Shown here one piece after another: positions 5,582-63,915 of a stretch of DNA of 64,000 nucleotides. Source of the stretch: a virus; IMG/VR virus record IMGVR_UViG_3300027586_000002, positions 42,941 through 106,940 of that record. One strand, 5' to 3'. Made by a program: the position numbers and the translations under genes. The stretch's first letter is position 1. Each line of letters starts with the position of its first letter. The notes under the pieces are model-generated. The model made no database searches. It saw only the letters and a program-made list of their open reading frames with translations, and was not told the origin of the DNA.

Positions 5582-6809
5582 CCCAGTTTTAGATATACAG
5601 AGATTCCTTTTTAATGGAGGAACTCTGGACCAGCTTAGAGAACAATATAAGTTAATAATAGTTGAACATGAAGATGGTAGAGTAATGTTTAATTATGATC
5701 AGATAGACTCTCCAAGAGGTGAAATGATATGCCAGGAATCTAGAGGGCTTATCTTGGAGAAAGGAACATGGGAACTAGTATCGCTAGGCTTTCATAGATT
5801 TTTCAACTCAGAAGAACTACCCTATGCGCACACACTTGATTTTAATTCTCAAGTAAGGGCTTTTCCAAAGATTGATGGTTCTTATGTATCAATGTATTAC
5901 TATAAGGGCCAATGGAGGTTTTCTACTAGAGGTAGCATTGACGCATCTGGCAGTGTCGGAGACTTTCCGTTTACGTTTAAAGAGCTAATAGATAGCGTAA
6001 AGCCTAGTAACTTTACAGACTATTCATTACAAACTTCCGTAGATTTTACTTATATATTTGAGCTAGTCTCTCCGTATAACAAGATAGTGACCCCATATGA
6101 AAAGGCTGAGCTTATACTTATAGGGGCCAGAAAAGTAAGAGACACAGAATATTCATTGGCTGTTCCTATAGGCTTTGAGCTAGATTATAAATCACTCGGA
6201 GCAATAGCTATATATTTTGGCGTAAAGTTCTATGAAGGGGTAGACATATCTAATCTACTTGCGGTCATTAATCTTATAGCAAACATTAAGCCTACAGACG
6301 AAGGGTTTGTTGTGGTAGAACAGACTAACTCTGTAAGAGGGTTTAGAAGAGTTAAAATGAAGAACGCCTCATATGTAGCCCTTCATCATTTAAAGTCATC
6401 TGATGGTTGCAAGAATTTAGCTGTCATACTACAGAAGGATGAAGACTCAGAGGTAGCCTCCCTGTTACCAGAACTTAAGCAGCTATTAGATACAGCTAGA
6501 AATAAAATAGAACAATTAATTGTAGTATTAAATAATCAGTATGAGCTGGCCAACCACGTAGCAGATAAGGAGTTGGAGCCTAGAGCTAAGAGGAAAATAT
6601 TTGCTGAGAATGCTCTAACATCTGCTGTTCCTGGTTTTCTATTTGAAAAGTATAATAAACCAGCGCTAGGGTTTAGAGAGATAATTAGAACAGCGCAACC
6701 TGATAAGATAGCAGAGTTGATAGGGCTAAAAAACATAAAGCTATCTGTGTTTAATCAGAAGCAGGAGCGCACCCTCCCTCCCGCCCCACCGACCCCCATA
6801 GCTAGCTAG
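5556..6809 (+). CDS. RNA ligase, T4 Rnl1 family
   Basis: ESRGLIL, RFFN, KIDGS motif I, STRG, FELVSP.N.IV, EGFVV, RVKMK..Y..LH. Confidence 0.85.
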   Translation: MNSHTKNNDPVLDIQRFLFNGGTLDQLREQYKLIIVEHEDGRVMFNYDQIDSPRGEMICQESRGLILEKGTWELVSLGFHRFFNSEELPYAHTLDFNSQVRAFPKIDGSYVSMYYYKGQWRFSTRGSIDASGSVGDFPFTFKELIDSVKPSNFTDYSLQTSVDFTYIFELVSPYNKIVTPYEKAELILIGARKVRDTEYSLAVPIGFELDYKSLGAIAIYFGVKFYEGVDISNLLAVINLIANIKPTDEGFVVVEQTNSVRGFRRVKMKNASYVALHHLKSSDGCKNLAVILQKDEDSEVASLLPELKQLLDTARNKIEQLIVVLNNQYELANHVADKELEPRAKRKIFAENALTSAVPGFLFEKYNKPALGFREIIRTAQPDKIAELIGLKNIKLSVFNQKQERTLPPAPPTPIAS

Positions 6810-6830
6810 TCTTAAGGCAGGTATAATACT
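6772..6830 (+). promoter_or_regulatory. cassette left end: C-rich tract + TAG box + GGTATAATA promoter box
   Basis: Same arrangement recurs at 30980, 58035, 58773 and 63236. Confidence 0.65.
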
Positions 6831-6925
6831 ATGGTGAAAGGCTAACTGCCTGACCATGTTTATACCTGTGTACCTTCAGGCATGAACATCTACAACGACA
6901 AAGGTAGAAGTGAGAGCAAAAAGTT

Positions 6926-7546
6926 ATGAAAAAAATCATTGTAAAGTTGTTGGCGTGGTGGCAGACACAGTTCTTGCGGCCCGCGTGGGATGAGGCCGAC
7001 CGTCTCGAGAAGGTCTCCGCCGACGCCGCCACCCTTGCGGCCGAGAAAAAGCCCGACGAGCCCAAGGCCGACGAGAAGAAAAAGGACAAGAAGGAAAACG
7101 CCGAGAAGAAGGACGACGAGAAGAAGGTGACTCACACTCACTACGTCGCGGACCTTGACCGCCGTGGTTCGCTGGCGGTCGCGGTAGTGGTTCTGGTTCT
7201 GCTGGCTTCGGTCGCCTGGTTCGGCGGCCGGGAGATAGTCAGGATCGGGAGCGAAGAATTGCAGAAGGAATGGCAGAAAGCCTTCCCCACCACGGCGCCT
7301 AAGAAATCCCAGCCGGTGGTGAAAGTGCTCCCCGCCGCGCCAAGACCGCCGCTGCCCTATAAGGGCAACCTGGCGGAGACGGTAGGATTCTTCGCAGCAC
7401 GTCGCATTGACGCAGCCACGGCCAAGATGGCGCGGCTGGAGGGATGGAGCCGCATGCCAGATAAATCATTCGCCGCCGGCCGATGGGTAGCATGGGCGGG
7501 CGGCGAAGTGGTCACGTATGACTACGTGGCCCAGAAATGGGAGTGA
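6926..7546 (+). CDS. GC-rich single-pass membrane protein (cassette cargo)
   Basis: Hydrophobic LAVAVVVLVLLASVAWF segment; visibly GC-richer than flanks. Confidence 0.7.
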   Translation: MKKIIVKLLAWWQTQFLRPAWDEADRLEKVSADAATLAAEKKPDEPKADEKKKDKKENAEKKDDEKKVTHTHYVADLDRRGSLAVAVVVLVLLASVAWFGGREIVRIGSEELQKEWQKAFPTTAPKKSQPVVKVLPAAPRPPLPYKGNLAETVGFFAARRIDAATAKMARLEGWSRMPDKSFAAGRWVAWAGGEVVTYDYVAQKWE

Positions 7547-7566
7547 CGGTGGAGTAGAAATGTTAA

Positions 7567-7652
7567 AGAGTGGCACCTGGGAAAACCTGGGTGCCACTCT
7601 GACTTATATAAATCAATTTTGATTAAAGAGCTAACTTTACTTTAGCTATTAG
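7567..7652 (+). terminator. cassette right end: hairpin + TTTAGCTATTAG
   Basis: AGAGTGGCACC...GGTGCCACTCT stem, then end motif at 7641-7652. Confidence 0.6.
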
Positions 7653-7683
7653 CTATTTATATTTTAAACCAGTAGTAATTTTT

Positions 7684-8580
7684 ATGAACACCGCATTAAA
7701 TAACCAACTAGCAGAGCAATTGACAGCATCAGCTCCCAAATTAGTGTTAGTAGAAAATAAAGGCATTCCTGAAGTCACACAGGTTATGGCATCAATTGAT
7801 AATCAGATAGCTTGCTTACAAGCAAACGCCGGCACGATAAACCTTGACCAAGAGATGCAAAAGCTTGGTCGTGGCTGGGTACGAGGCTCCAAAATTAACA
7901 ATGTTAATAACGTACATATGTTAAAACAAATGTTGAGCCGTGTTACCAAATTGCTAGACAGAACCGATATGGCTGACGGAACCACAGCCTACAGGTTTTT
8001 CATACCTGACGAATATACAGCAGTGACATGCTGGGTCAGACTGCAAGAGCTAGGGCAAAGAAGGCTTGTGTTCAAGCCAAAGCATAATGTCTCAGGTCAC
8101 TCCCGCAAGCCACAATTTGATTGCCAGATTGTTGTAGGCTACCGGTTGGCTATACCAGAGCTACATACTGAAGATGAAGCTTTCTTCTATGCTCCAGACG
8201 TAGCACCTATCGCTACAAATATAGTTACATTTGTAGTTAACACCAAAGAGAACAGGCTGGTAAAGTGGCTGCCTGGAGAAGACAAAGAGCGTTTTCGCCC
8301 TACCAGCGATCTTAAAACGCACTGGGTAAACTGCTGCAACTATCCAAAAGAGAAATATCAGCCTAAGGCTAAAAATGTGCCAGCTGAGTCAAAGCTGTCA
8401 GATAATAATATTACACTTACTCCAAGACCTATAATGTCGTCGCTCCCACCAATAATGGCAGTGAAACCTAAAATACAAGAAGAAGACGAGGTATCATTTG
8501 TATTTGCTCTAAAAGAGGAGCTAAAGAAAGATGGGCTGTTGATTTCTACCTTCGAGCAAATGGGTATGTCAAAGCACTAA
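7684..8580 (+). CDS. hypothetical protein
   Basis: 298-aa ORF, no recognised motif. Confidence 0.7.
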   Translation: MNTALNNQLAEQLTASAPKLVLVENKGIPEVTQVMASIDNQIACLQANAGTINLDQEMQKLGRGWVRGSKINNVNNVHMLKQMLSRVTKLLDRTDMADGTTAYRFFIPDEYTAVTCWVRLQELGQRRLVFKPKHNVSGHSRKPQFDCQIVVGYRLAIPELHTEDEAFFYAPDVAPIATNIVTFVVNTKENRLVKWLPGEDKERFRPTSDLKTHWVNCCNYPKEKYQPKAKNVPAESKLSDNNITLTPRPIMSSLPPIMAVKPKIQEEDEVSFVFALKEELKKDGLLISTFEQMGMSKH

Positions 8581-12608: not shown

Positions 12609-14351
12609 TTAAGCCTCAGGTGGTTTATTTTGTTGTTTGGCTCTGTCTACTCCATCCTTCTTGGCTCCACTAGTTAGCTGTTCCAAGGCGGCTTTGACTG
12701 CGCCATATAGTGTTTCATCGCTGGCCTTAACCTCTTGAAGTTTCTGTCTTCTCCCTGCTGCATCCAGAGGGAATAGCTGCTGCGCGATCTCTTGGGCCTT
12801 CTCAAGCACATCTTGAGGAGAACCACCACCACCACCACCACCACCACCACCACCGCTACCGGCGTCAGCCATTTGTTGTAGCTGTTCCTTTGTTTGCTCT
12901 TCTTGCTGTAACTCCTTAAGCGTACGGTCCTCATCAATCTTTTTACGTATTTGCTCACGATAATCGAAACCATACAAGCCGAGTAGCTCGCTTCTAGCAA
13001 TAGCGTTAGCGGATACAAGCTGACCAATAATACTTTTACGTTCCATATCATCGCTAAGAGTAACAGGCACCAAGCTAACCTTAGCGTCTGGAAGACCTTT
13101 TATTTTCGCTATGACTTCAGCAATGTGCCCCAATAGATCATTATAAATATCTATAATTGGAGCCCAAGAATTTTCAAACAATCTAAGGGCCGGCCCCGCC
13201 GCCTGAACAGTTAAACTCATGTTGTACAGCTCTTGTGGAATATTTAAGGCATTTAAAATATTAGCTCTGGCATTGTTGATAAGCTCAACTGGAGCCAGGT
13301 TTTTGGCATCGCCTCCTAATTGTTGAAAATCTAATGGGAATGGGAAAGTATGGTATGAAGCAGGATCAACACGATGTTCTTTAATCATCTGATCCACCGC
13401 AGAAGTCCACTTACCGCCGTGCTGTGTTAATATTGGGTTAGCTTGACCATTAACTTCCTTTGCCATAGATATTACTCTAAATGGAGCGATGTCTTCCATA
13501 CATATAGCTTCATTGAATCTTTCCATTACTTTCAATAGAAAGAAGTCGTCAAACATATAAATACAACGAGGAATAGACTTACCATCACTTTTAATGCCTG
13601 CAGGAGTAGGCATTTTTAAATGCACGAAGTTCTTAGTATTGAACTCCAGCATCCGCTCATTAATGATTGCGTCATATATGATCTTTGGAGTTTTCTTACT
13701 AAAGAATTTATTATCAGTTCTTATAACCTTTTCAACATAAGCTTTAGGTATGTCCCAAAAGTATTGTGAAGAACCTGTGGTTTCTTCAAATCTTATTACA
13801 ATTTCCCTTGGGTCCCAGAAAGTGAGGTTAAGTTTGTCTAAATCCTTGGAAGGTTTGTCTACTCCCTCATGTATACCAGTATAGTTACAGCTAGGACATT
13901 TATAACTAAACTTGCCTTTCTTAGAGAATTTATAATTATTAAGTTTGTCGATATTACTGTGTTTACCACACTTAGGACACACTAGGAAGCGCTCAAATCC
14001 TTGGTTAACAGATACAAACACATTGCTATAGGCTAGTAAGTTTAGCCCAGCCATTGACAGTATTTGCTTCCAATGTAGATCGTCGAAAATCTCTTTATAC
14101 TTTCGCTTAGCAGTAGAGTCATCACATTCAATTTTAAGCGAAGTTATAAAGTAGTTAGCAATACGACTTAAGGCTGCATGATAAAAACCAAACCTTAAAA
14201 GAAAATGATTAGCCCACCACAACATACCATCCGGGGAATTAAGTGGTATATACTTTTGAGCTACCCCATAGAAAGGATTGGCGTATGAATCTCGCTTACT
14301 CCCTGCTCCTGTGAAAAATCCGGACGGTCCTGGAGAATTATCTAGCGACAT
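12609..14351 (-). CDS. probable portal protein with zinc-ribbon insertion
   Basis: 580 aa; portal-like features (N.FV, WDP.EI, NILNALNIP, D..EQ..K coiled tail); CPKC/CPSC insert; poly-Gly linker. Confidence 0.55.
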   Translation of the reverse strand: MSLDNSPGPSGFFTGAGSKRDSYANPFYGVAQKYIPLNSPDGMLWWANHFLLRFGFYHAALSRIANYFITSLKIECDDSTAKRKYKEIFDDLHWKQILSMAGLNLLAYSNVFVSVNQGFERFLVCPKCGKHSNIDKLNNYKFSKKGKFSYKCPSCNYTGIHEGVDKPSKDLDKLNLTFWDPREIVIRFEETTGSSQYFWDIPKAYVEKVIRTDNKFFSKKTPKIIYDAIINERMLEFNTKNFVHLKMPTPAGIKSDGKSIPRCIYMFDDFFLLKVMERFNEAICMEDIAPFRVISMAKEVNGQANPILTQHGGKWTSAVDQMIKEHRVDPASYHTFPFPLDFQQLGGDAKNLAPVELINNARANILNALNIPQELYNMSLTVQAAGPALRLFENSWAPIIDIYNDLLGHIAEVIAKIKGLPDAKVSLVPVTLSDDMERKSIIGQLVSANAIARSELLGLYGFDYREQIRKKIDEDRTLKELQQEEQTKEQLQQMADAGSGGGGGGGGGGGSPQDVLEKAQEIAQQLFPLDAAGRRQKLQEVKASDETLYGAVKAALEQLTSGAKKDGVDRAKQQNKPPEA

Positions 14352-31026: not shown

Positions 31027-31074
31027 ATAGACCAATGTGCCTGTTGCCCATTGGCTGTCCGTTCCTACCTAACT

Positions 31075-43024: not shown

Positions 43025-43107
43025 CCCTCCCTCCCTGCTCATCGATACTTATTACACCAAGCACAAGAAGAGGCAGCCTGTGTGGCGCTCTTTTTTTTAG
43101 CTATCAG
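43025..43107 (+). repeat. empty cassette: C-rich tract joined to the conserved hairpin/end motif
   Basis: CCCTCCCTCCC...AAGAGGCA-GCC-TGTGT-GGC-GCTCTTTTTTTTAGCTATCAG. Confidence 0.7.
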
Positions 43108-44543: not shown

Positions 44544-44567
44544 ATTAAAACTGTTTGTATACTGTTA

Positions 44568-45269: not shown

Positions 45270-45270
45270 A

Positions 45271-45609: not shown

Positions 45610-45610
45610 A

Positions 45611-46771: not shown

Positions 46772-46772
46772 A

Positions 46773-49619: not shown

Positions 49620-50040
49620 TAGCCTTCTTGTTTAAGTAATCAATGATAACTTGATTATCTGCTAGTTGTTCCTTTAACCCGACAACCTCAGCTTCATAGT
49701 CTTTAACCTGGGTTTTAAGAATATCGATTTCATCCTGCATATCATTCAATCTTGCATTGCAGTCCTGTCTTTTAATTGTTTCTTGGTCAAGCCTTACACT
49801 TAGCTCATCCAAACGTTTGCCTAGATCCGTAGCTGATTTTTTCCAGAATTCTGCCATATCTATTTCTCCTTCTATTCTAGTTTTATCTGCTAATGAAATG
49901 TCTTTCTTTGATTCAGCGTCGTCTTTTCTCTTTGACAACAGTTTTATAATTATAGGTGCAAGTCCTGCACCTCCTAATAATATCAGAAATATGTCTTTAA
50001 TGAAAATAAATGTTTGATCGTCAGCTCCTGGTAGTGTCAT
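49603..50040 (-). CDS. membrane-anchored coiled-coil protein (holin-like)
   Basis: One N-terminal TM, basic stop-transfer residues, heptad tail. Confidence 0.5.
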   Translation of the reverse strand: MTLPGADDQTFIFIKDIFLILLGGAGLAPIIIKLLSKRKDDAESKKDISLADKTRIEGEIDMAEFWKKSATDLGKRLDELSVRLDQETIKRQDCNARLNDMQDEIDILKTQVKDYEAEVVGLKEQLADNQVIIDYLNKKANVAGQ

Positions 50041-50044
50041 ATGT

Positions 50045-50992: not shown

Positions 50993-50995
50993 AGG

Positions 50996-52261
50996 TTATC
51001 GATTAAAAATTTTATCTTTTAAGTTATCCAGCATTAGTTGTTGAAGCTCTTCTTTTTCTTTTATAAAAGAAGCTATAGAACCTGTAGGCCTGGACATGTT
51101 AGCCATTACTTTGTCCTTGTAAGATGTATATGGATTTGTGTTAACAGCTTTGATCTTGTCTAAGTAATTATTTCCTTTGCCTAACTCTTGTCCTATCTCT
51201 CCAGCTTCCCCAGCCATTTGGGCTATTAAATTTGCAGCAACCAAAGGAGGCACACCAGTAAATCCCGCCGCCACCGCCGCCAGTGCCTCAGGAAGACCAA
51301 CTCGTCTAGCGTCTGTATAAACACCATCATTTAACCAAGATTTTTGAGCAGTAGGATCAGAACCAGGGATAAGGTTGTATTCGTGTGGAGCGGCGATTGG
51401 TAGCTTAAGCTTGTTTAAAGTATCAGTTAATATTGGAGATGAGTCACCTATAGTCCAAGAATAATTACCAGGCGGGGCCATAATAACCTTATTAACATTT
51501 ATTTTAAAGTCTTTAGGTGTAGAGTACGTTGTTGGAGTATAAATATTTTTGAATGGATAATCTCTATTTGTAATTGGGTCTTGATTATGTATTATTTCAT
51601 TTTTTCCTTTATCAGTCAATAAACCATCTCCATATTGATGTCGTCCATTTACAGTAGTATTTAATTGTTTAATAAACTTGGCATACATGTCTGGAGTACA
51701 ACCATCTGTGTTAGGATTGCAGCCTAATGCTTTAATTATACTTGGATTTTTATCTTGTAACTCTGAAGTTAAATGTTGGTTAGTTAACAATTTAGAATTG
51801 TATAGACCTTCGTCATCATTCCCACCCTCGTTTTTAATACCAGTAAACTGGCTAATATTTTTTCCTATATTTTCTGGCCTACGCTTTGGTTCGTGTATAA
51901 GTGATTCTGTTTTACCTCCCCATGGAGCACCAGAGTGAACAACGTCGGGTATGCTAAGATCATAGTATGCTCCTTTATTTTCTTTAGAATAAGGATTACT
52001 TAGATTATAGTTATTTCTATCTCCGATACCATGTGCGTCCATATTTAATATTGACCCATTTGGGTTAATCGGAAATTTTGCGTTTCCTGAGAAGTAAGGT
52101 AAATTTATACGGCTGTTATTTAACAAGTTTAGACTACCAGGCTGGTATATTCCTTTACCTAAATTAGTAATGTTAGGCTGTGGTTTAGACACAGGTATAG
52201 GAGGGCGCTCAACATCAGCCGCTCGCTTATAGAAACCTCTTATAATAGCCTCAACGTTCAT
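50996..52261 (-). CDS. leader-tagged His-Gly/Cys domain protein with hydrophobic C-terminal segment
   Basis: MNVEAIIRGFYKRAA; LNMDAHG...IKALGCN. Confidence 0.7.
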   Translation of the reverse strand: MNVEAIIRGFYKRAADVERPPIPVSKPQPNITNLGKGIYQPGSLNLLNNSRINLPYFSGNAKFPINPNGSILNMDAHGIGDRNNYNLSNPYSKENKGAYYDLSIPDVVHSGAPWGGKTESLIHEPKRRPENIGKNISQFTGIKNEGGNDDEGLYNSKLLTNQHLTSELQDKNPSIIKALGCNPNTDGCTPDMYAKFIKQLNTTVNGRHQYGDGLLTDKGKNEIIHNQDPITNRDYPFKNIYTPTTYSTPKDFKINVNKVIMAPPGNYSWTIGDSSPILTDTLNKLKLPIAAPHEYNLIPGSDPTAQKSWLNDGVYTDARRVGLPEALAAVAAGFTGVPPLVAANLIAQMAGEAGEIGQELGKGNNYLDKIKAVNTNPYTSYKDKVMANMSRPTGSIASFIKEKEELQQLMLDNLKDKIFNR

Positions 52262-52264
52262 TGG

Positions 52265-53086
52265 TTATTTATTGTATCCTTTAAACGTGTTAGTTGACCA
52301 ATTCCCATTTGTACCTTTTAGATATTGAACTGGCCTTGTACCAATACCCATTGGATTAATCATACTCATACCAAATGGTCGTGACTTACCAGCTCCAATT
52401 GAGAGTAAATCATTAACAACTCCAAATCTTCCTTGAGGAGAGGCAACCATATTAGTCATGTTAGGAAAAGCTTTGGTAAATTCTTCAGTAGGTGCTCCGC
52501 CGCCACGCTGGTTGCAAGTACTAAGATATAAATTATGAACGTTTGTTGCCTTATCTCCTATAGTTTTTTTTAAATCGTCTACATTAAAATGTACATTAGG
52601 TGTAGGAAAATCATTTTTTCCTATGGATGACTTATCAATTCCAACAGAATAGTAGTTGGGTTCTCCGCCCCCATGCATATTAACTAAAAATGAATTAGAT
52701 GGATTTTTATTTAAAAAGTCTAGCAGTAATGGTCGTTTATTATACCTAAGATCTCCTTCTAATATCATCGAGGAGTTCATATTAGAGTTTGCTCCATGAT
52801 AAACGAATGGTGATAGTTCTGTAGGTTTGTTATTTGATATTTCATTAACTATTTTAGAAACTTCTGGTAGCTTGAAAAACTTATATGTATCCATATCTAA
52901 GTGCTTATTAATAATGGGTTCAAGCTTTTTGTCCATGATTTGATTATAGCTAGAAACAAGGTCAAAATGCTGGTCTGAAGCAGGAGGGACATCTGGAGTT
53001 TTTGTATTTAAGAAAGGATGTCTAGGATTTAACGGAAGATCCGCCGCCCTCTTCATAAACCCTCTTATAATAGCCTCAACGTTCAT
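52265..53086 (-). CDS. leader-tagged His-Gly/Cys domain paralog
   Basis: MNVEAIIRGFMKRAA; FLVNMHGG...LYLSTCN. Confidence 0.75.
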   Translation of the reverse strand: MNVEAIIRGFMKRAADLPLNPRHPFLNTKTPDVPPASDQHFDLVSSYNQIMDKKLEPIINKHLDMDTYKFFKLPEVSKIVNEISNNKPTELSPFVYHGANSNMNSSMILEGDLRYNKRPLLLDFLNKNPSNSFLVNMHGGGEPNYYSVGIDKSSIGKNDFPTPNVHFNVDDLKKTIGDKATNVHNLYLSTCNQRGGGAPTEEFTKAFPNMTNMVASPQGRFGVVNDLLSIGAGKSRPFGMSMINPMGIGTRPVQYLKGTNGNWSTNTFKGYNK

Positions 53087-53089
53087 AGG

Positions 53090-53797
53090 TTAATTGTATC
53101 GTTTAAACGTGTTAGTTGACCATTGCCCGTTAGTTCCCTTTAAGTATTGAACTGGGTCTGTGTGTTTAACTTCTTGATCACCCCAATTGGCTGGGTTTAA
53201 TAAAGTGTTAGAAAATTGTCTTCTACCTGTCATACCAATATTAAATATGTCATTTACATAGCCCGGCTTCCATGGTGGGGAGGCGACTATATTTGTTACA
53301 TTAGGAAAATTATTTAACATTTGACTAGTAGGATAGCACCCAGCATCTCGGTTACAAGTTGCGAAGAACAAGTTATGCACATTAGTGGCTTTATCTTTCA
53401 AAGCATCCTTTATGTCTGATATAAAAAAATCTTTATTAGGTGTTATTGGATTTAACCGTTGATTAGGTATTACAGATTTATCTAAATTAATAGCATACTC
53501 GTTATTAAACCCTCCTCCATGACTATCTATAAATAATGAATTTAATGGATTTTTTTGTAAGAAATAGTTTTTAAGCTTATTACTACTCTCTCTCAACTCT
53601 CCCTCAAGCAACATAGATGAATTCATGTTGGACTTAGCTCCATGATAAATATATGGAGCCAATTTATCTGCATTAGAATTAGTATTACTTACTATATGGT
53701 TTTCCAATGTGAATGGCTTGTTCATTGGATGCTGTGGGTTTAATGCCGCATCAGCCGCTCGCTTATAGAAACCTCTTATAATAGCCTCAACGTTCAT
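53090..53797 (-). CDS. leader-tagged His-Gly/Cys domain paralog
   Basis: MNVEAIIRGFYKRAA; LFIDSHGG...LFFATCN. Confidence 0.75.
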   Translation of the reverse strand: MNVEAIIRGFYKRAADAALNPQHPMNKPFTLENHIVSNTNSNADKLAPYIYHGAKSNMNSSMLLEGELRESSNKLKNYFLQKNPLNSLFIDSHGGGFNNEYAINLDKSVIPNQRLNPITPNKDFFISDIKDALKDKATNVHNLFFATCNRDAGCYPTSQMLNNFPNVTNIVASPPWKPGYVNDIFNIGMTGRRQFSNTLLNPANWGDQEVKHTDPVQYLKGTNGQWSTNTFKRYN

Positions 53798-53800
53798 AGG

Positions 53801-55267
53801 TTATTTAATTCCTCCGATTGGGTTGATTGGCTTCATGCCTATAGGCTTAATAGGCTTGATATCCGGCGCTGTCATAGGTGTAGATAAAGCATTCGACTTA
53901 CTTGCATTATTTAACGCCGGCGCAGATATGTCTAAAGGTTTGTTATTATTTTGAAAATTTAATCTTCTTTGCAATCTATTTATATTACCACTGTCTTGCT
54001 GTATATCCCACAAGTTCTTGCCAATGTTAAGCATGTCTCCGCCAGCATTCCAGGCTTTATGAGAAAGATCTCCTATTCCTCCAGCAATAGCTCCAGGGAT
54101 AGCTCCAACACCACCACTCAAGGCTCCACCAGTAGCCGCACCCGCTGTCATTGCTTTAGTTGAATCTAACCAGTGACCACTTACGTCATTAAAATAAGAA
54201 GATATTGGATGTTGCTCTTGCTGTGCTGGTGTTGCCATTGGACCAGTAGGAGCAACAGCGTCTAACCCCATGGAGATAGGAACGCCTACAGCCATGCCCT
54301 TGCCCATAGATTTAGCAAATTGATTTATTGGTTTAGTTAAATCTAATTGGCGTTGTGCATTGTTTGGATAAACAATAGCTTCATCAATATGATTTGCTGC
54401 AGAATGAGGGCCACGATAGTAGTTTAATTCTTTTAAGAATTCAGGAAATTTATAGACCAGACTATCTGGAATTGGTGTAGTTACTGCTCTACTTAATAAA
54501 TGACCACCTGCAAAATATGCAGCTGAGCCTGTCCTTAAAAGACTTTCACCAGGACCGTGGTATCTTGGTCCTTTATACCCACCATATAAATTAGCAAAAG
54601 TTTCACTTGGGCCTAATTGTAATTCAGGTGTGACAATTGGACCATAGCGCATAGAAGGAATAGTGGGATTTTTAGCATGCCATAATTCATGTGCCATTAT
54701 ACTTCTACGTAGATATTTATTTATATCAGGTATAAACTTAGTAACGCCGTTATCCTTTGGTATGCCTAGCATTTGTGCTGCATCATTAGCAGTTGATGGT
54801 AACAAATTAGAGTTAATCTTAATTTCTGGCCAGCCGTGTCTAAGATAAAAGTCTTTATCTCCTAAAAAATTAGGATTGATTGGTGCATTAACAATATAAG
54901 ATGGTTGGCCAAGCTGTGTATACCCAAGCAAGGAGCTTGGCATTTTTTCTCCTTTTGACATTGCTAGGACTTTATAAAAGTCGCTTAGAGATGGATCATC
55001 AACACGTCTAGGACCTGGATATGAGATTGGAACACCAGCTAAACTAACCGCTCTCTTCATAAACCCTTTATACAAAGCTACTTTAAGATTATCACTTATA
55101 TGTTCAGGAAGACCTTTGAGCTTAGTCTTGGCATAGTGTAACACGTCTTCTGGCGACATTGATTTGGCCAATGACTTGATTCTCTTATTAGGGCGCGATA
55201 GCTTGCCCTGTTGGTGCAGGTGAACAAGTTTAAACAGACGTGCTTGCGCTTTTGATACTGCCGGCAT
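53801..55267 (-). CDS. modular protein: MPAxSKAQ domain, internal leader, zincin motif, glycine zipper
   Basis: ALYKGFMKRA; AHELWH...E..AN; GAATGGALSGGVGAIPGAIAGG. Confidence 0.7.
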   Translation of the reverse strand: MPAVSKAQARLFKLVHLHQQGKLSRPNKRIKSLAKSMSPEDVLHYAKTKLKGLPEHISDNLKVALYKGFMKRAVSLAGVPISYPGPRRVDDPSLSDFYKVLAMSKGEKMPSSLLGYTQLGQPSYIVNAPINPNFLGDKDFYLRHGWPEIKINSNLLPSTANDAAQMLGIPKDNGVTKFIPDINKYLRRSIMAHELWHAKNPTIPSMRYGPIVTPELQLGPSETFANLYGGYKGPRYHGPGESLLRTGSAAYFAGGHLLSRAVTTPIPDSLVYKFPEFLKELNYYRGPHSAANHIDEAIVYPNNAQRQLDLTKPINQFAKSMGKGMAVGVPISMGLDAVAPTGPMATPAQQEQHPISSYFNDVSGHWLDSTKAMTAGAATGGALSGGVGAIPGAIAGGIGDLSHKAWNAGGDMLNIGKNLWDIQQDSGNINRLQRRLNFQNNNKPLDISAPALNNASKSNALSTPMTAPDIKPIKPIGMKPINPIGGIK

Positions 55268-55385
55268 ATACACTTCAAATATAACTTATTGACTTTAAGG
55301 TTTAAAGCTTAAACTCATTTAAAAGATGATTGTATTAATTTAGCTATAAGTTATAATTACAAAAGGTAGTTAACTAAACATACAA

Positions 55386-58034: not shown

Positions 58035-58080
58035 GACCCCGGGTAGGCAATCTAATAGCTAAAAAAGGGTATAGTATATT
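58035..58080 (+). promoter_or_regulatory. cassette left end
   Basis: GACCCCGGGTAG...CTAATAGCTAAAAAAGGGTATAGTA. Confidence 0.7.
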
Positions 58081-58133
58081 AATGAAAGGCTTATCTTTCA
58101 TTAAACGTTCCTAACCACAAAACAAAAAACACT

Positions 58134-58280
58134 ATGAAACCCGTACTAAAAGGGCCGGAAAAAGGGGTTAAACTCCCTATAAAAAAGGCCTCAATAACCC
58201 AGCTGCTCATTGAGGCCAGGAGACTGGGCTTCAAGCTTAAACTTAACAAAGATAAAACGATTGCAACTTTATTAAATTAA
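58134..58280 (+). CDS. small basic protein (48 aa, cassette cargo, not in ORF track)
   Basis: MKPVLKGPEKG...TLLN*; start context shared with 58539. Confidence 0.5.
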   Translation: MKPVLKGPEKGVKLPIKKASITQLLIEARRLGFKLKLNKDKTIATLLN

Positions 58281-58284
58281 CCTT

Positions 58285-58542
58285 ATGGCAATATACAATT
58301 ATAAAAGTAAGGTAGCTTTCATGCAGGTCAGCGCGAGCTTTCATAAGCACTACACGTTCAACGCCAAGAGCAGGGATGCAGCCACCAAGGCGACGGACTG
58401 CCCCAAATGCAAGTTTGGAACGATTGTGCCTCCGAAAAAAGTGCCAGGCAAATGGGTGCTGGTTCATAAATGGCATTGTATTGACTGCCGGGCTGAGTTT
58501 ACACCAGAGGAAATGAGATATAACCAACAAAAAACACTATGA
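58285..58542 (+). CDS. zinc-ribbon protein (cassette cargo)
   Basis: CPKC...CIDC. Confidence 0.6.
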   Translation: MAIYNYKSKVAFMQVSASFHKHYTFNAKSRDAATKATDCPKCKFGTIVPPKKVPGKWVLVHKWHCIDCRAEFTPEEMRYNQQKTL

Positions 58543-58718
58543 AATATTACGTCATCAATCGTGGCGCTGGAATCAAGCATTATTATCGGACCACGCCGCC
58601 TGACGGTGAGGTGCAACACTTGTGGCGCACGAAGTGGGTGGCGTGCGCATATGAATGCTTGGAAGACTTGCTGTCGGATGGTGCGGAGCTTGGTGAGTTC
58701 GACCCAGGGTTGAATTAA
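58539..58718 (+). CDS. small protein (59 aa, cassette cargo, not in ORF track)
   Basis: MKYYVINRGAG...PGLN*; ATGA overlap. Confidence 0.55.
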   Translation: MKYYVINRGAGIKHYYRTTPPDGEVQHLWRTKWVACAYECLEDLLSDGAELGEFDPGLN

Positions 58719-58730
58719 CCAGATAAGATA

Positions 58731-58773
58731 AAAAGAGGCACTCGTCATGAGGCTCTTTTTTTTAGCTATCAGC
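58731..58773 (+). repeat. 43-bp hairpin/terminator repeat, copy 1
   Basis: AAAAGAGGCACTCGTCATGAGGCTCTTTTTTTTAGCTATCAGC, identical at 59317. Confidence 0.9.
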
Positions 58774-58830
58774 CCCCTCCCTCCCTCTCCCTATACCTTT
58801 GAATAGTTATAAGCTGGTATAGTATTTTGA
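58773..58830 (+). promoter_or_regulatory. cassette left end
   Basis: CCCCCTCCCTCCCTCTCCC...AATAGTTATAAGCTGGTATAGTA. Confidence 0.65.
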
Positions 58831-58857
58831 GTAGAAACATTAACCCAAAGTGAATGT

Positions 58858-59079
58858 ATGAAAAATATGAAGAAGAAGTGGGCAGTGGTCGGTGCACTAC
58901 ATCTCCCAGTGTACCGCGGTAAGATAATCTCCACGCACAGAACAAAGAGGCTGGCGGAGAAGAAGGCTGGCCCTGGCTACGGCGTGAGCTTCCTTGTTAT
59001 GACGTCGAAGGAAGCCATGTCGGAAAATCCGCCGCAGCTAACATACGCGCGTAATCCTCTCGACAAGATGGTAGGCTAA
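58858..59079 (+). CDS. small basic protein (cassette cargo)
   Basis: GC-richer ORF after the promoter box. Confidence 0.55.
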   Translation: MKNMKKKWAVVGALHLPVYRGKIISTHRTKRLAEKKAGPGYGVSFLVMTSKEAMSENPPQLTYARNPLDKMVG

Positions 59080-59084
59080 AGCAT

Positions 59085-59303
59085 ATGGAAACAATTCCTT
59101 GTCCTCGCCGAGAGCTCCGCCCCGGAGAAGTAATCATGGAGGGGCGGTTGGACCAAGACTGGTATGAGCGTCAGCACGGGCTTGGCGTACGGTGGGTTGT
59201 TGACGAATCTCCTCTGACACCGGAGGAACAGAAGAGCTGGGATGCAGGTTATCAGAAGGAGGTGACCCACAGTCGGATGAGTCTGATCTTCCCAATCAAG
59301 TAA
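59085..59303 (+). CDS. small protein (cassette cargo)
   Basis: GC-richer ORF before the hairpin repeat. Confidence 0.55.
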   Translation: METIPCPRRELRPGEVIMEGRLDQDWYERQHGLGVRWVVDESPLTPEEQKSWDAGYQKEVTHSRMSLIFPIK

Positions 59304-59316
59304 GAGCATCAAACAC

Positions 59317-59359
59317 AAAAGAGGCACTCGTCATGAGGCTCTTTTTTTTAGCTATCAGC
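59317..59359 (+). repeat. 43-bp hairpin/terminator repeat, copy 2
   Basis: Exact copy of 58731-58773. Confidence 0.9.
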
Positions 59360-60325: not shown

Positions 60326-62302
60326 TTATTTAAGTACACAGACATCGTTGTTACAAAATTTTTCGACCTCCGCTTCCTCATGCTTGATCTTCTTCAAGTG
60401 CAATGTGCTTAGTCCTCCTACTAACTTATCATATTCCTTCTCAGTGATGCCCTCATATGGCATCTGACGATAAGCTTTGGTCTCCAGCTTTGGTAGGAAT
60501 GAAATACCCTTAAGTTGATATTGATATATATTAAGTGCCGCTGCGATTTGATCAGCTTCATGTGGCTTGAATGTCACTGTGCATGAAACCTGGTTGTCAG
60601 CCCAATGACGCTGCATAAAGGCAGCCAAGGCCAATTGCTCCCACATACCAACGTCCTTAACTGTCCTGATCTTTGGATCAACGTTTACAGGAATCTCTAC
60701 TACTACTGTGCTGTCCTCAGATCCGAAGCATGGCTCTATATGATAGCCAGCCTCTTTCAATGGCTTTACTAGCTCACTGTTCTTACTAAGTCTAACACGA
60801 CGAATGTAAAACTTATCCTCTGGATAATGAATGCCAGGAGTAGCACCAGCAAGCAACGATACTGTACCGCTAGGCTTGATTGATGTCTTCTTGATGCTCT
60901 TAGGTATTGCTAGCCAGTCAGAATAAATAGTATCGTAGTATTCAATGGCCGCGTAACCCTTCTCACACCATTCTTTAAGAGTGTGCAGTCCTTTATTTGT
61001 TACAAACTGTGCAATACCACTCATGGAGCAACCAATGCGACGGTTTCTTAACATGACTCTATTAGTATCAGGCCAGTGAGTATTACCAAGTGTTACTGTC
61101 TTGGCATATAGATAGGCATACTTGAGAGTTATAAGATAGTCGTCTACTGATTCGTGGTTATCTGGGAATGTTTCAACCAGGCAGCATAGCTCATAAGACT
61201 CCAATGACTGCTCCAAGCACGGGTTTCCTCCCATTACTCTATGATCCTTGTTGTCTTTGCCATTGTTCATTCTAGAATAACCGCGCATGTTCTCTAGCCA
61301 AGCTATTCCTGGTTCACCGTTGACTTGAATCCTCTTGGCTGTCTCAGTGTAGTCCATGCCAAGCTCAGCAAAGATGCTGTTGTTAGATGCCCAACCAAAC
61401 TCCTCGCGGTATTTGTTAACTTTGTAGTTCTTAAGATCAAGATACTCCTGCGACTCATAATCACCGAAGCTAATCTCAGCGGTACGACGAATTCCGGCAG
61501 AGACCACACACTTACCTAGTAGATTCATTATGTCTACGATTGAAGTAATGGTGATAGCCTTGCCAATGTTCTTGTTTAGAATAGTTCTAATATCTTTATG
61601 ACAATCAACAAGAGACTGAGGACCTCCAGATACACCACCGAACCCCTTGATCGGTACTCCTTCTCCACGAATCTGAGAATAGTCAAAGTTAACATACATG
61701 CCTCCATTAAAATAAGACTCTAGCAATGTCTTTATAGATTCAACCCATCCTTCTCTGCTATCTGGAATCACAAATGTATTCTTTTCATCGTCCACGCTGC
61801 CTGGCTTAAGTATATTAATAGTGCCAGCACCTTTGGTGTCAAAGCCGACTCCGACTCCTAGCATTGAAGCATCCATTAGAAAGCAAAAAGGCTTTGTCTT
61901 ATCTTCCCTTAATGTTTCAGTGGATACAAATGCACAATTATTCAAAGCAGCATATAGTCCACGATCTTTAATAATAGAAGATCCCATTGTCCATAACCCG
62001 CGCCCTGGAGGCAAGAACTTCATATTAAAGATACGATCATACATCTCCTGGGCAGATGCATGCGCCTTCTTTGAATTCCACCCTAGGTTATGTGATTCAA
62101 TCCAATCACGCTGCATCTGGAATGTTCCGTTTACTACACGTTCAATGGTCTCCCACCATACTTCGTTTTCACCATTCTCTTTAAGTCTTGAGTAGGTTCT
62201 CATATAAATGAGCTCTCCAAGTCCGTTAAATCCAAATGGTGGTTTCTGTTTCTTATATTTCGACAGGAAATTGTCGGAAAGTTTAAATGTCGTCTCTTGC
62301 AT
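60326..62302 (-). CDS. nrdJ: class II (adenosylcobalamin-dependent, monomeric type) ribonucleotide reductase
   Basis: RTYSR, PPGRGLW, ALNNCAF, GVGVGFD, NPCLEQ, KPSGTVS, C-terminal CxxxxC. Confidence 0.92.
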   Translation of the reverse strand: MQETTFKLSDNFLSKYKKQKPPFGFNGLGELIYMRTYSRLKENGENEVWWETIERVVNGTFQMQRDWIESHNLGWNSKKAHASAQEMYDRIFNMKFLPPGRGLWTMGSSIIKDRGLYAALNNCAFVSTETLREDKTKPFCFLMDASMLGVGVGFDTKGAGTINILKPGSVDDEKNTFVIPDSREGWVESIKTLLESYFNGGMYVNFDYSQIRGEGVPIKGFGGVSGGPQSLVDCHKDIRTILNKNIGKAITITSIVDIMNLLGKCVVSAGIRRTAEISFGDYESQEYLDLKNYKVNKYREEFGWASNNSIFAELGMDYTETAKRIQVNGEPGIAWLENMRGYSRMNNGKDNKDHRVMGGNPCLEQSLESYELCCLVETFPDNHESVDDYLITLKYAYLYAKTVTLGNTHWPDTNRVMLRNRRIGCSMSGIAQFVTNKGLHTLKEWCEKGYAAIEYYDTIYSDWLAIPKSIKKTSIKPSGTVSLLAGATPGIHYPEDKFYIRRVRLSKNSELVKPLKEAGYHIEPCFGSEDSTVVVEIPVNVDPKIRTVKDVGMWEQLALAAFMQRHWADNQVSCTVTFKPHEADQIAAALNIYQYQLKGISFLPKLETKAYRQMPYEGITEKEYDKLVGGLSTLHLKKIKHEEAEVEKFCNNDVCVLK

Positions 62303-62807: not shown

Positions 62808-63221
62808 TTACTGCAGGCTAATAAGATCAATGCCATAGAAGGTAAATATCTTCTTAGCTTGGTCATCTCTGGTGTACTCTTCTTTATACACCACAGTTTT
62901 AATACCGTAGGCCGCTATCATCTGAGCACAACTAGTACAAGGGAGTAAGTTGCAAGCCAGAATAGCTGCTCCTTCGTTTCGCTTTACAAGGGATAAAGCA
63001 TTGACCTCGGCATGAAGCATGTAGGGCCTCCGTCCATCTCTATCTTCCCAGAATGTAGGATCAACGTTAGTACCTGGAGCTAAGCCGTTATAACCCAAGC
63101 TGAGCACTCTATTATCCTTGTCTAGTATACAGGCTCCTACTTGTACATATGGGTCTTCTGATCTTAGGGCTGCCACCTCTGCTAGCTTTAAAGCATATTC
63201 GTTCCAAGAAAGTCTATTCAT
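62808..63221 (-). CDS. dCMP deaminase
   Basis: RS.DP..QVGA, GYNG, HAEVNA, PCTSC. Confidence 0.9.
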   Translation of the reverse strand: MNRLSWNEYALKLAEVAALRSEDPYVQVGACILDKDNRVLSLGYNGLAPGTNVDPTFWEDRDGRRPYMLHAEVNALSLVKRNEGAAILACNLLPCTSCAQMIAAYGIKTVVYKEEYTRDDQAKKIFTFYGIDLISLQ

Positions 63222-63235
63222 AGGCGGACAACCTA

Positions 63236-63295
63236 CCCCTCCCCGCCGGCCCGGTCAAGTTAATAGCCAGAATAAGGGTATAGTACTTTGATGAG
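63236..63295 (+). promoter_or_regulatory. cassette left end, overlapping a divergent sigma70-like promoter
   Basis: C-rich tract + TAATAGCCAGAATAAGGGTATAGTA; minus strand TTGACC-N17-TAGGTT (63258-63230). Confidence 0.65.
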
Positions 63296-63361
63296 GGATC
63301 TGTGCTGATGAAGCCTGGTCATTGATTAATAAACTCATCGAGCGGAATAAAAGGCAAAGCT

Positions 63362-63859
63362 ATGATGACTGATTTTGAACAAGCGATGGCGTGGTTCAAC
63401 AGCCGCCCGGTGATGGCGAGGGTCGGGTCATACGCGGACTACGAGGTTAAGTTCACAGGAACTGTGGCCGAGGCGGAGGCATTCGTCGTAGCTCAGGGCG
63501 AGTCGCTAGAAGTTCTTAAGCGGTTCACTTACCGCGACGGGCTTCGCCCTCTTCCTGGTGATGTCCAGGGCGACCTCTACATCGACGTGGAGCAGCCGCC
63601 GATGAAGTGCACATGTAAGTGCGGGGGTTGCGGCGGCGTGGCCTTGCAATCCGACTCCTTCAGGCGCTGGGCTTGCCGGTGCAAAGGGTGCGTCACGGAG
63701 GAGCAGATGCGGGAGGAGGAGGTCGAGGCGCAGCGTCGGGCTCGGGCGGATGCCGCACTGCAAGAAGAGAACGCCCGCTTCTGGGGGGAGCAGCGGGAGG
63801 AGTCGAGGAAGGTTGATCAGGAGATGATCCTGGAAGAACTTGGGTTGGAGTTGGTGTGA
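63362..63859 (+). CDS. GC-rich Cys-cluster/coiled-coil protein (cassette cargo)
   Basis: CxCxCxxC and CxCxxC; visibly GC-rich. Confidence 0.7.
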   Translation: MMTDFEQAMAWFNSRPVMARVGSYADYEVKFTGTVAEAEAFVVAQGESLEVLKRFTYRDGLRPLPGDVQGDLYIDVEQPPMKCTCKCGGCGGVALQSDSFRRWACRCKGCVTEEQMREEEVEAQRRARADAALQEENARFWGEQREESRKVDQEMILEELGLELV

Positions 63860-63874
63860 TACCAACTAGCACGC

Positions 63875-63915
63875 AAAAAGAGGCATCCCACGGGAGCTCT
63901 TTTTTTAGCTATCAG
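63875..63915 (+). repeat. cassette right end hairpin/end motif
   Basis: AAAAAGAGGCA-TCC-CACG-GGA-GCTCTTTTTTTAGCTATCAG. Confidence 0.8.

Follow-up and report, generated by a model that had tools for sequence, protein, structure and literature searches.

Seven units in the window

The window comprises 64,000 nt, the last part of a 106,940-b source contig (G0) from a phage of ~40% GC, and encodes 15 tRNAs. Seven units (U1 to U7), all on the plus strand, lie where the sequence-only reading of this DNA had placed them. They are listed here with two genes upstream; coordinates follow window numbering unless marked "contig", and all promoters and terminators are predicted ones.

2590-3804, + strand: UvsX/RecA-like recombinase, 49% identical in the relative G1
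5556-6809: RNA-ligase ORF upstream of U1, running through the U1 C-tract and stopping within the U1 left end
6772-7652, + strand: U1; C-tract 6772-6797; -10 box GGTATAATA 6820-6828; cargo ORF 6926-7546 (+, 206 aa, one membrane span, GC 0.61, GC3 0.76); hairpin 7567-7600; end motif TTTAGCTATTAG 7641-7652
30980-31549, + strand: U2, directly 3' of tRNA-Val (30897-30972); GACCCCCGGG 30980-30989; -10 box 31013-31021, then TATTGA and a leader hairpin; cargo ORF 31075-31491 (+, 138 aa, GC 0.49); terminator hairpin ~31506-31540 (-22 kcal/mol, z -6.0); end motif variant TTTAACTATTAG 31538-31549
41898-42357, + strand: U3, degenerate; C-rich stretch interrupted; AGTATAATT 41941-41949; cargo ORF 42008-42310 (+, 100 aa, GC 0.38, backbone-like); terminator hairpin ~42316-42337 (z -6.1); T6; end motif variant TTTAGTTATTAG 42346-42357
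43025-43107, + strand: U4, a remnant standing alone ("empty"); C-tract CCCTCCCTCCC 43025-43035; -10 box and ORF both absent; terminator hairpin ~43067-43092; T8; TTTAGCTATCAG 43096-43107
58035-58772, + strand: U5; GACCCCGGG 58035-58043; end motif in inverted orientation 58052-58066; -10 box GGTATAGTA 58068-58076; leader hairpin 58082-58101; three small cargo ORFs (+), 58134-58280, 58285-58542 (Cys4 zinc-ribbon-like) and 58539-58718; terminator, T8 and TTTAGCTATCAG, last nt 58772
58773-59358, + strand: U6, abutting U5; C-tract 58773-58791; TGGTATAGTA -10 box 58815-58824, then TTTTGA; cargo ORFs 58858-59079 and 59085-59303 (+, GC 0.52-0.55); terminator, T8 and TTTAGCTATCAG, last nt 59358
63236-63915, + strand: U7, 85 nt before the contig end; C-tract 63236-63255; -10 box GGTATAGTA 63277-63285, then CTTTGA; cargo ORF 63362-63859 (+, 165 aa, Cys-rich, GC 0.61, GC3 0.75); terminator; T7; TTTAGCTATCAG 63904-63915

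As had been noted from the sequence, no unit carries a TTGACA-like -35 element, which is missing because the promoter is predicted to be of the extended -10 sigma70 type; most G0 promoters have GGn, not TGn, ahead of the -10 box. The TAGYYA box described upstream of it is present in five of the eight units of the source contig, but missing from the promoters of relatives. Folding energies of the predicted terminator hairpins range from -9.5 to -22 kcal/mol. Each full unit had been said to bear a hairpin before its end motif; that of U1 is strong, but no T-run directly precedes the end motif there. The inverted ends hold for U5 (CTAATAGCTAAAAAA versus TTTTTTAGCTATCAG), whereas in every other unit the similarity amounts to the palindromic, self-complementary core TAGCTA, and the relatives lack terminal inverted repeats, so that inversion is not a general feature. 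No target-site duplications were seen flanking the units. Judged by terminal inverted repeats and target-site duplication, a MITE- or IS-like transposable element fits poorly, given the single inverted end at U5, the palindromic core and the lack of flanking duplications.

The motifs are over-represented and paired. The promoter box GGTATARTA occurs seven times in the window against 1.4 expected (0 of 100 shuffles reached seven), and the end motif TTTAGCTATYAG, with at most one mismatch, nine times against 1.5 expected, with eight of the nine copies on the plus strand. The excess is thus 5-6-fold, nearly all of it on that strand. Across the 106,940-b contig, a right motif follows six of the nine plus-strand promoter boxes within 900 nt, as compared to 0 of 20,000 random placements, bearing out the claim that the motifs are paired around genes. 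The part of the contig that precedes the window has two extra units, contig 4552-5229 and contig 5675-6169, the cargo of the latter being a structured RNA of GC 0.53 with no ORF.

A composite module conserved across the phage family

Because U6 abuts U5, their junction (58733-58824) forms a complete composite module, in the order hairpin, T7-8, AGCTATYAG, C-tract, ~22 nt, (T/G)GnTATAAT, N3 and TTGA. The same element is found at many junctions in the relatives G1, G3, G5, G7 and G9, and the module is common to ~10 distant relatives (portal 31-57% identical; 29-56% GC). An exact 19-mer of it occurs at 13 loci in other viral contigs, between which the hairpin stems differ while the T-run and AGCTATCAG are conserved. 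Module counts on the two strands were 8/0, 0/7, 2/0, 8/0 and 0/4 in five relatives.

The promoter consensus from eight genomes is TGGTATAAT-N3-TTGA, a textbook extended -10 sigma70 element, leaving the dedicated polymerase proposed earlier unsupported. A search for T7-like RNA polymerases gave no match, the positive control being likewise blank, and sigma region 2 gave a sub-threshold match in one relative only. At 21 sites, a tract of at least four C residues ends 23-26 nt before TATAAT, as compared to 0.5% of background positions, and its position is fixed at about -36 to -50. The spacing between AGCTATYAG and the C-tract varies, from 0 to 8 nt. In 11 family genomes, AGC directly follows 63 of 202 hairpin-plus-T6 terminators, and these 63 therefore form a distinct terminator subclass. 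The 56% GC family member G10 has the same AT-rich end motif.

GC-rich chromosomes of Verrucomicrobiota and Gemmatales also contain the hairpin-T7-AGCTATCAG element, as a single copy that closes DUF932 operons or adjoins a TIR gene.

These regularities could reflect regulation only, with the promoter and the AGCTATYAG terminator serving as the control signals of one temporal gene class. The C-tract at about -40 could bind a phage or host activator, AGCTATYAG could be a site of termination or anti-termination, and cargo would turn over simply because early regions commonly evolve fast, the modules having no causal part in it. The fixed distance from the C-tract to the -10 box and the fixed place of the AGC motif directly after the T-run agree with such a role, and the conservation of both signals in very divergent genomes, including that of 56% GC, implies function rather than hitch-hiking. 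Moreover, the same promoter precedes genes outside cassettes, for example 3' of a tail-fibre-like gene in the relatives L010 and L007.

Cargo composition and homology

The cargo had been described as GC-richer than the backbone. Median GC is 0.52 in 11 cargo ORFs and 0.39 in 156 backbone ORFs (Mann-Whitney p=5e-6), and the comparison of GC3 inside and outside the units gave medians of 0.59 and 0.36 (p=3e-6). The overall contrast is therefore clear, but U3 and the first U5 gene are not GC-rich. At the upper end, three cargo genes have GC of 0.61-0.66 and GC3 of 0.75-0.83.

The suggestion that host-like codon usage is by design appears less likely than a foreign origin. Under such a design, immediate-early genes would not be recent imports but would be GC-rich to fit the tRNA pool of a GC-rich host, a match needed before the phage's own tRNAs are made. 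A phage of 40% GC with many tRNAs, a family apparently tied to GC-rich Planctomycetota/Verrucomicrobiota and the GC3 values of the three richest cargo genes are in line with this idea. However, cargo GC grades continuously between 0.38 and 0.66, varying within U5 itself, and it is raised at every codon position and in the ORF-free cargo at contig 5675-6169. The cassettes of G1, which have the same promoters, are not GC-rich (GC 0.35-0.45), and in the relative L097 GC-rich islands adjoin modules on the opposite strand. We thus regard codon design as very improbable.

The cassette cargo had no family match in Pfam or PHROGs. In a tblastn search of 14 ORFs (the 11 cassette cargo ORFs and three other GC-rich ones) against ~1.4 Mb of relatives, one had a match. 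Cargo was conserved in relatives in 1 of 11 cases, as compared to 20 of 107 other small ORFs, a difference that is not significant (p=0.38) because the relatives are too distant.

Signs of cassette exchange between and within genomes

L010 and L007 are 76-92% identical; at one backbone site the former has two cassettes and the latter a single one. The cargo at this shared site is essentially unrelated (one marginal 27-aa tblastx match, E=0.002), that of L007 having a GC of 0.56. The internal junction of L010, between terminator type 1 and left end type 2, appears in L007 as two parts, one on each side of the cargo, with 96% and 85% identity; homology breaks inside the modules, and the boundary modules are permuted. 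Likewise, the site 3' of the homologue of contig ORF 3978-4550 bears cassettes in the source contig and in G1, with different cargo. No close relative of the source contig was found, and filled versus empty alleles with their breakpoints were therefore seen only in other family members.

Within genomes, modules that are 94-100% identical stand beside unrelated cargo. G7 has six promoters within 2.1 kb, with modules of 72-79 nt that are 94-99% identical. In the window, the terminators of U6 (59317-59359) and U5 (58731-58773) are 100% identical over 43 nt, whereas the cargo of the two units is unrelated; this perfect repeat flanking U6 would be a recombination substrate.

Such near-identity beside unrelated cargo indicates ongoing recombination or conversion and argues against regulation alone. 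Homology breaking exactly in the modules of L010 and L007, with one module split around other cargo, and the solo remnant U4, which lacks a promoter, also argue against that account, which we consider unlikely by itself. The regulatory and exchange readings are nevertheless compatible: the PeSL (promoter-early stem-loop) elements of T4-type phages are also working promoters and terminators.

The reading that we favor, with a probability of roughly 60%, is that the units are regulatory cassettes of the PeSL kind, which homologous recombination shuffles in a non-T4 phage family. It draws together the cassette anatomy, the motif statistics, the family-wide conservation, the cargo replacement at module boundaries in relatives and the foreign composition. 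Each unit would be an autonomous, insulated transcription unit, in which host sigma70-type RNA polymerase initiates at the extended -10 promoter with no need of a -35 element. The transcript would open with a short leader, often forming a hairpin, carry one, two or three small ORFan genes and end at the intrinsic terminator, with AGCTATYAG directly after the T-run. Because they are conserved and near-identical within a genome, the modules would act as portable homology, between which general recombination, probably by the UvsX-like enzyme, would delete, duplicate, permute or import the intervening genes, perhaps through circular intermediates, in the way suggested for PeSLs of T4-type phages. 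Cargo of 61-66% GC in a 40% GC phage would be recently imported foreign DNA, likely from GC-rich relatives or from further mobile elements in a GC-rich host that probably belongs to the Planctomycetota or Verrucomicrobiota.

The statement that no recombinase is visible stands for site-specific enzymes, but the window does encode the UvsX-like general recombinase, a candidate for recombination between modules. In five family genomes, of which four have a completeness of 92% or more, no tyrosine recombinase (PF00589) and no serine recombinase was found, while the control genomes all matched PF00589.

Comparison with known systems

In T4-type phages, a PeSL element consists of a stem-loop terminator and, immediately 3' of it, a sigma70-like promoter whose -35 and -10 boxes are separated by N17, then a Shine-Dalgarno sequence and a start codon. 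Such elements border variable ORFan genes in plastic regions, and recombination between neighbouring elements gives mini-circles, detected by inverse PCR (Arbiol et al. 2010, PMC2839356; Comeau et al. 2014, PMC4122927, from which the definition and the proposed mechanism are taken). Both systems place a composite of stem-loop terminator and sigma70-type promoter between small ORFan genes, repeat it near-identically within one genome, contain degraded "half" elements, and combine a UvsX-type recombination system with the absence of a site-specific recombinase. In both, insertions, deletions and replacements break in the modules, here in L010 versus L007 and at the site shared by the source contig and G1. 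The sequence-only analogy to PeSLs and gene exchange is supported by the conserved boundary module, by the differing cassettes at shared sites in relatives and by the near-identical modules within genomes. In contrast to PeSLs, the present lineage is not a T4-like myovirus, an extended -10 element and a fixed C-tract upstream of the -35 slot take the place of the -35 box, and the T-run leads directly into the conserved 9-nt AGCTATYAG. Genomes ranging from 29% to 56% GC share the module, and some cargo far exceeds the phage in GC. Taken as a whole, the earlier observation is real and partly confirmed, and its interpretation partly supported. Conserved boundary modules thus recur family-wide and mark places of gene swapping in a lineage unrelated to T4-type phages.

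Morons (Juhala et al. 2000; PMC3594210) share with these units their own promoter and terminator, a position between backbone genes and deviant composition. They have no conserved flanks, nor is mobility attributed to their regulatory parts (PMC2839356). Morons insert by illegitimate recombination; here, in contrast, the flank is a module conserved within and between genomes, and prophage expression is unlikely because no integrase was found in the phages.

Integrons resemble the units in their short cassettes, tandem arrays, 3' hairpin element with a conserved core, and unrelated cargo of foreign composition. However, the five family genomes lack an IntI-type tyrosine recombinase. Integrons pair that enzyme with an attI site, and their cassettes are promoterless and end in attC, with paired R and L core boxes, whereas each cassette here has its own promoter and a GC-stem plus T-run terminator hairpin of free stem sequence.

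What homologous recombination alone leaves unexplained is the conservation of AGCTATYAG and the C-tract at ~31% portal identity, and the way in which isolated cassettes start at the C-tract and end exactly at CAG; both features hint at a protein-binding function. A dedicated capture system, with a nuclease or recombinase recognizing AGCTATCAG and/or the C-tract site-specifically, would account for these sharp ends, for the tandem junction CAG/CCCC and for the 9-nt core being far more conserved than its surroundings. Cassettes would then move, integron-like but promoter-bearing, among phages and the other mobile elements that share their hosts, and the chromosomal copies near DUF932 operons or a TIR gene do have a mobile-element-like context. 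Nevertheless, we judge such a system improbable: besides the absence of tyrosine and serine recombinases, of target-site duplications and of general terminal inverted repeats, every cassette has its own promoter, the AGCTATYAG/C-tract spacing is variable, and no candidate enzyme was found. It is a similarly long shot that both motifs are recognition sites of a protein targeting or catalysing cassette exchange across the Planctomycetota/Verrucomicrobiota mobilome. If true, the exchange would take in phages with a GC content of 29-56% as well as chromosomal elements that carry DUF932 operons, as a "phage integron" with promoter-carrying cassettes, independent of recombinase family.

Phage lineage and host

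Two large structural-block proteins (948 and 421 aa) had no PHROG match. Among 50,697 phage records, the portal protein reached no more than 25-26% identity, to Vibrio phages D69/D181/D148 and Salmonella phage Arash as its best matches, and these cultured phages are not T4-like. The family consists of uncultured phages of about 185-200 kb and is probably tied to GC-rich Planctomycetota/Verrucomicrobiota. Homologues of the U1 cargo, only 45-50% identical, lie on metagenome contigs of 32-196 kb.

Promoter-cargo-hairpin units on the contig

All seven plus-strand units proposed by the sequence-only reading were recovered, and two further units of this kind were found on the same contig, upstream of the window:

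U1: window 6772-7652, plus strand
U2: window 30980-31549, plus strand
U3: window about 41898-42357, plus strand
U4: window 43025-43107, plus strand, empty remnant
U5: window 58035-58772, plus strand
U6: window 58773-59358, plus strand, abutting U5
U7: window 63236-63915, plus strand
Upstream unit: contig 4552-5229, promoter and variant end TTTTTTTTAACTAGCTAT
Upstream unit: contig 5675-6169, promoter and end TTTAGCTATCAA

The promoter box GGTATARTA recurs as claimed, with seven occurrences in the window versus 1.4 expected. The end motif TTTAGCTATYAG (at most one mismatch) occurs nine times versus 1.5 expected, eight of the nine on the plus strand. The two are also paired over the whole contig, since an end motif follows within 900 nt of six of the nine plus-strand boxes, versus 0 of 20,000 random placements. 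The terminator hairpins have folding energies of -9.5 to -22 kcal/mol. U4-U7 have the outer arms in common (AAGAG...CTCTT), and their inner stems co-vary as CTC/GAG, TCCC/GGGA and GCC/GGC. Isolated cassettes start with the C-tract and end with CAG. U4 is a promoter-less remnant, its 83 nt comprising the C-tract, the terminator and the end motif.

The cargo is GC-richer than the backbone, as had been noticed by eye, with a median GC of 0.52 versus 0.39 and a median GC3 of 0.59 versus 0.36 (p about 5e-6). This holds for most units, the exceptions being U3 and the first U5 gene, which are backbone-like. Three cargo genes have a GC of 0.61-0.66 and a GC3 of 0.75-0.83, as is usual for genuine coding sequence of high-GC origin. 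Two other proposed traits did not generalize. Inverted ends are confined to U5, the other units having just the palindromic TAGCTA, and the TAGYYA box is present in five of eight units of this contig and absent from the relatives.

An RnlA-like RNA ligase ORF (window 5556-6809) crosses the U1 C-tract to its stop codon at 6807-6809. The final dozen codons or so lie in the left end of U1, as if the U1 insertion had replaced the original 3' end of the gene. Elsewhere, a copy of the end motif with one mismatch, TTTAGCTATAAG (window 55339-55350), lies without a hairpin between divergent genes, in the spacer of a conventional promoter (TTGTAT-N16-TATAAT), and is probably unrelated to the cassettes.

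We rejected the idea that tRNA genes are cassettes, as none of the 15 tRNAs in the window is flanked by the motifs; the exception is the start of U2, directly after tRNA-Val. The end motif occurs behind the 3' ends of tRNAs in some relatives. We also discarded a pairing between UUGAUAG, at the 5' start of the RNA, and CUAUCAG, the motif at its 3' end, because the two showed no co-variation across the cassettes of G7, a member of the same phage family, and others. Searches for known RNA families returned only tRNAs in the window, and none in the two upstream units or in motif-bearing host loci. A literature search for these motifs themselves gave nothing relevant.

A family-wide terminator-promoter module

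The source contig is an IMG/VR virus record of 106,940 b and 40% GC, with an estimated completeness of ~52%, and the window is its final 64 kb. In addition to 15 tRNA genes, the window encodes a UvsX-like recombinase, the RnlA-like RNA ligase, a ribonucleotide reductase (RNR) and a portal protein:

Portal: window 12609-14351, minus strand; best cultured-phage matches 25-26% (Vibrio phages D69/D181/D148, Salmonella phage Arash)

Given these matches, the phage is not T4-like. In a blastn search against 50,697 phage records, the U5/U6 region had no match and the structural block only short, chance-level ones. The RNA ligase as a query retrieved only 30-67% fragments from viral and metagenome contigs, and viral contigs gave no match to the cargo of U7 or to the profile of the U1 family. 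These searches thus found no close relative of the window. We compared the window with ten relatives, retrieved whole or largely, which have portal identities of 31-57% and a GC of 0.38-0.56.

An exact 19-mer (CTC, T7, AGCTATCAG) was found at 13 loci in other viral contigs, where the hairpin stems vary and the T-run and AGCTATCAG are invariant. The motif is fully strand-biased in five relatives (8/0, 0/7, 2/0, 8/0 and 0/4). Alignment of all promoter-like sites gave the consensus TGGTATAAT-N3-TTGA, which reads as an extended -10 promoter. Extended -10 sigma70 promoters function without a -35 box, so that the absence of TTGACA is accounted for by this promoter type. The promoters of the present contig mostly have GGn instead of TGn, the G at -14 being kept. 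At 21 sites, a run of at least four C residues stops 23-26 nt short of TATAAT (background positions, 0.5%), and the C-tract is therefore fixed at about -36 to -50. The elements of a tandem array follow one another as hairpin, T7-8, AGC(T/C)NT(Y)(A/G)G, 0-8 nt, C-tract, ~22 nt and promoter, as in the following examples:

G7, 12.6-14.7 kb: six promoters in 2.1 kb
G1, another relative, 159-162 kb
U5/U6 junction, window 58772/58773, plus strand

A motif-independent scan of 11 genomes detected 202 hairpin+T6 terminators, and AGC directly follows 63 of them, which thus form a distinct subclass of terminator. Even G10, a family member of 194 kb and 56% GC, carries the identical AT-rich end motif. The promoter-terminator cassettes are a real, non-random, family-wide system.

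Evidence for gene exchange at the modules

The sequence-only reading had suggested looking in relatives for empty versus filled sites with breakpoints at the motifs. One pair of relatives has such breakpoints at a shared site: between shared conserved flanks (genes 76-92% identical), G1 (contig L010) has two cassettes and L007 has one, and the breaks lie in the modules. The junction of terminator type 1 and left end type 2 is continuous in L010, and its halves flank the cargo in L007, with 96% and 85% identity. The cargoes are essentially unrelated, with a single marginal 27-aa tblastx match (E=0.002); that of L007 encodes 203 aa and has a GC of 0.56 in a 0.40 backbone. Contig ORF 3978-4550 and its homologue in G1 are each followed by two cassettes, which agree in promoter type and differ wholly in cargo. 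Unrelated cargo likewise accompanies the ends of U5 and U6, which share 43 nt at 100% identity, and the promoter-leader modules of G7 (72-79 nt, 94-99% identical).

The cargo genes are ORFans with respect to Pfam and PHROGs, and searches of Pfam, PHROGs and the Atlas gave no informative match as to function. Of 14 ORFs used as queries, 11 from cassettes and three other GC-rich ones, just one has a match in ~1.4 Mb of family DNA. Homologues of the U7 cargo (68-85% identity, contigs up to 67 kb) and of the U1 cargo (45-50% identity, contigs of 32-196 kb) were found on metagenome contigs only, which points to a gene pool circulating in related large phages. Cargo and other small ORFs did not differ significantly in conservation among the relatives compared, because these are too distant.

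The upstream unit at contig 5675-6169, 36.8 kb before the window, has the usual promoter and end motif around an ORF-free cargo of 447 nt and 53% GC, whose RNA folds at -185 kcal/mol (z -6.3 versus shuffles) and has no Rfam match. The promoter and most of this RNA lie between the two copies (5684 and 6073) of AAGGTACTTCGCCCT, a perfect direct repeat of 15 nt. The first cargo of the other upstream unit (contig 4699-5091) encodes 130 aa at 66% GC, with an N-terminus resembling a prepilin-type cleavage/methylation signal (...AGMITLIEAVFVV; GMITLIE, then a hydrophobic helix). It is followed by an AAA_33 kinase gene (5230-5685, 55% GC), the final codons of which are the C-tract of the next unit.

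Enzymes and mechanism

The sequence-only reading saw no recombinase, in agreement with the absence of tyrosine and serine recombinases from five family genomes (four with a completeness of at least 92%), the control genomes being positive. A T7-like RNA polymerase also gave no match, a weak result as the control was likewise blank, and sigma region 2 had one sub-threshold match, in G1. The UvsX-like recombinase is conserved in G1. Exchange would proceed by homologous recombination between short linkers kept in conserved form, the mechanism put forward for the promoter-early stem-loop cassettes (PeSLs) of T4-type phages, and the data fit it. Recombination needs homology rather than particular sequences, so it leaves unexplained why AGCTATYAG and the C-tract are kept across genomes with ~31% portal identity and 29-56% GC, and why isolated cassettes have these ends, the C-tract and CAG. 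We consider it improbable that a dedicated protein exchanges the cassettes. Given its fixed spacing, the C-tract may serve as an upstream promoter element or an activator site, and AGC, with its fixed place behind the T-run, may act in termination or be bound by a protein.

Origin of the GC-rich cargo

Among one genome each of 185,579 species, the exact 19-mer had 16 matches. Nine are in records assigned to Planctomycetota, among them Gemmataceae, Gemmatales and Blastopirellula, and another three are from Verrucomicrobiota. The remaining four mostly lack a clear hairpin, and their count is about the chance estimate. A 15-mer was found in 10 of 401 Planctomycetota genomes versus two control matches. 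On GC-rich chromosomal contigs, the motif is present in single copy after a hairpin and ends DUF932 operons or adjoins a TIR gene, a mobile-element-like context. One Gemmataceae MAG has five motif copies on contigs of 41-48% GC and a portal homologue at 33%; on one contig, a 1.2-kb island of 56-65% GC lies beside a module. Prepilin-type proteins are very common in the Planctomycetota and Verrucomicrobiota phyla. Taken together, G10, the motif distribution, the chromosomal context, the Gemmataceae MAG and the prepilin-like cargo make a GC-rich PVC host and its mobilome the likeliest source of the GC-rich cargo. The ~1.4 Mb of family DNA, with the 56% GC phage G10 included, yielded no cargo donor. 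Homologues of the cargo of this contig were not found in motif-bearing host loci, nor was the U1 family in the 401 Planctomycetota genomes.

In two MAGs, from Luteolibacter (L107) and Verrucomicrobia (L106), a single hairpin-T7-AGCTATCAG in the GC-rich bacterial chromosome ends an operon that encodes small membrane proteins and a DUF932 protein. Lower-GC DNA lies beyond, and the site resembles the border of an integrated mobile element.

Comparison with PeSLs

To our knowledge, PeSL-type modular shuffling has been described so far in T4-like phages only. PeSLs combine a strong sigma70-like promoter with a terminator stem-loop in hyperplastic regions (PMC2839356), and were shown to form mini-circles (PMC2839356; PMC4122927). 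Morons, unlike PeSLs, lack conserved flanks (PMC2839356). The present cassettes work in the manner of PeSLs, but the lineage is not T4-like and the promoter is not of the -35/-10 type. The module sequence also differs, with its extended -10, fixed C-tract and 9-nt post-terminator core. The same logic in an unrelated, uncultured family of ~190 kb phages would suggest that portable terminator/promoter linkers offer large lytic phages a general and convergent means of acquiring and testing foreign genes, leaving neighbouring expression undisturbed.

The T-run with AGCTATCAG, and the C-tract with TGGTATAAT-N3-TTGA, provide a simple sequence handle for locating the accessory ORFan genes of this family and for tracing it in metagenomes. 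The strong bias of the motif to Planctomycetota and Verrucomicrobiota assemblies is a host lead for phyla with, as far as we know, very few known viruses. Promoter/terminator assays and protein pull-downs have a concrete target in AGCTATYAG and the C-tract, both deeply conserved.

Other features of the contig

The RNR gene (window 60326-62302, minus strand) is 65-73% identical to genes in otherwise unlike viral contigs of 0.29-0.45 GC, the L043 version being ~1000 aa, perhaps with an insertion. A relative search based on it found four loci, in which the similarity to this phage is confined to RNR itself. Such high identity in viral contigs otherwise nearly unrelated suggests lateral transfer of the gene.

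Degenerate tandem repeats, with copies about 75-81% identical, occupy contig 1-435, the very start, and the other contig end lies 85 nt past U7; on either side the assembly may have broken off in repeats. On the minus strand at window 44488-53807, many short segments (35-124 nt) come back with 80-98% identity where consecutive genes start and end. In the gene block 43593-55273 they represent repeated junctions between genes or else N-terminal leaders.

Two GC-rich ORFs lie outside the cassettes and lack module flanks. One (window 21047-21379) encodes 110 aa at a GC of 0.52, with a weak match to phrog_2355. The other (contig 458-2218; 586 aa, GC 0.54) was not found in genome contigs; it has Thr/Ser-rich linkers and is possibly a fibre or receptor-binding protein.
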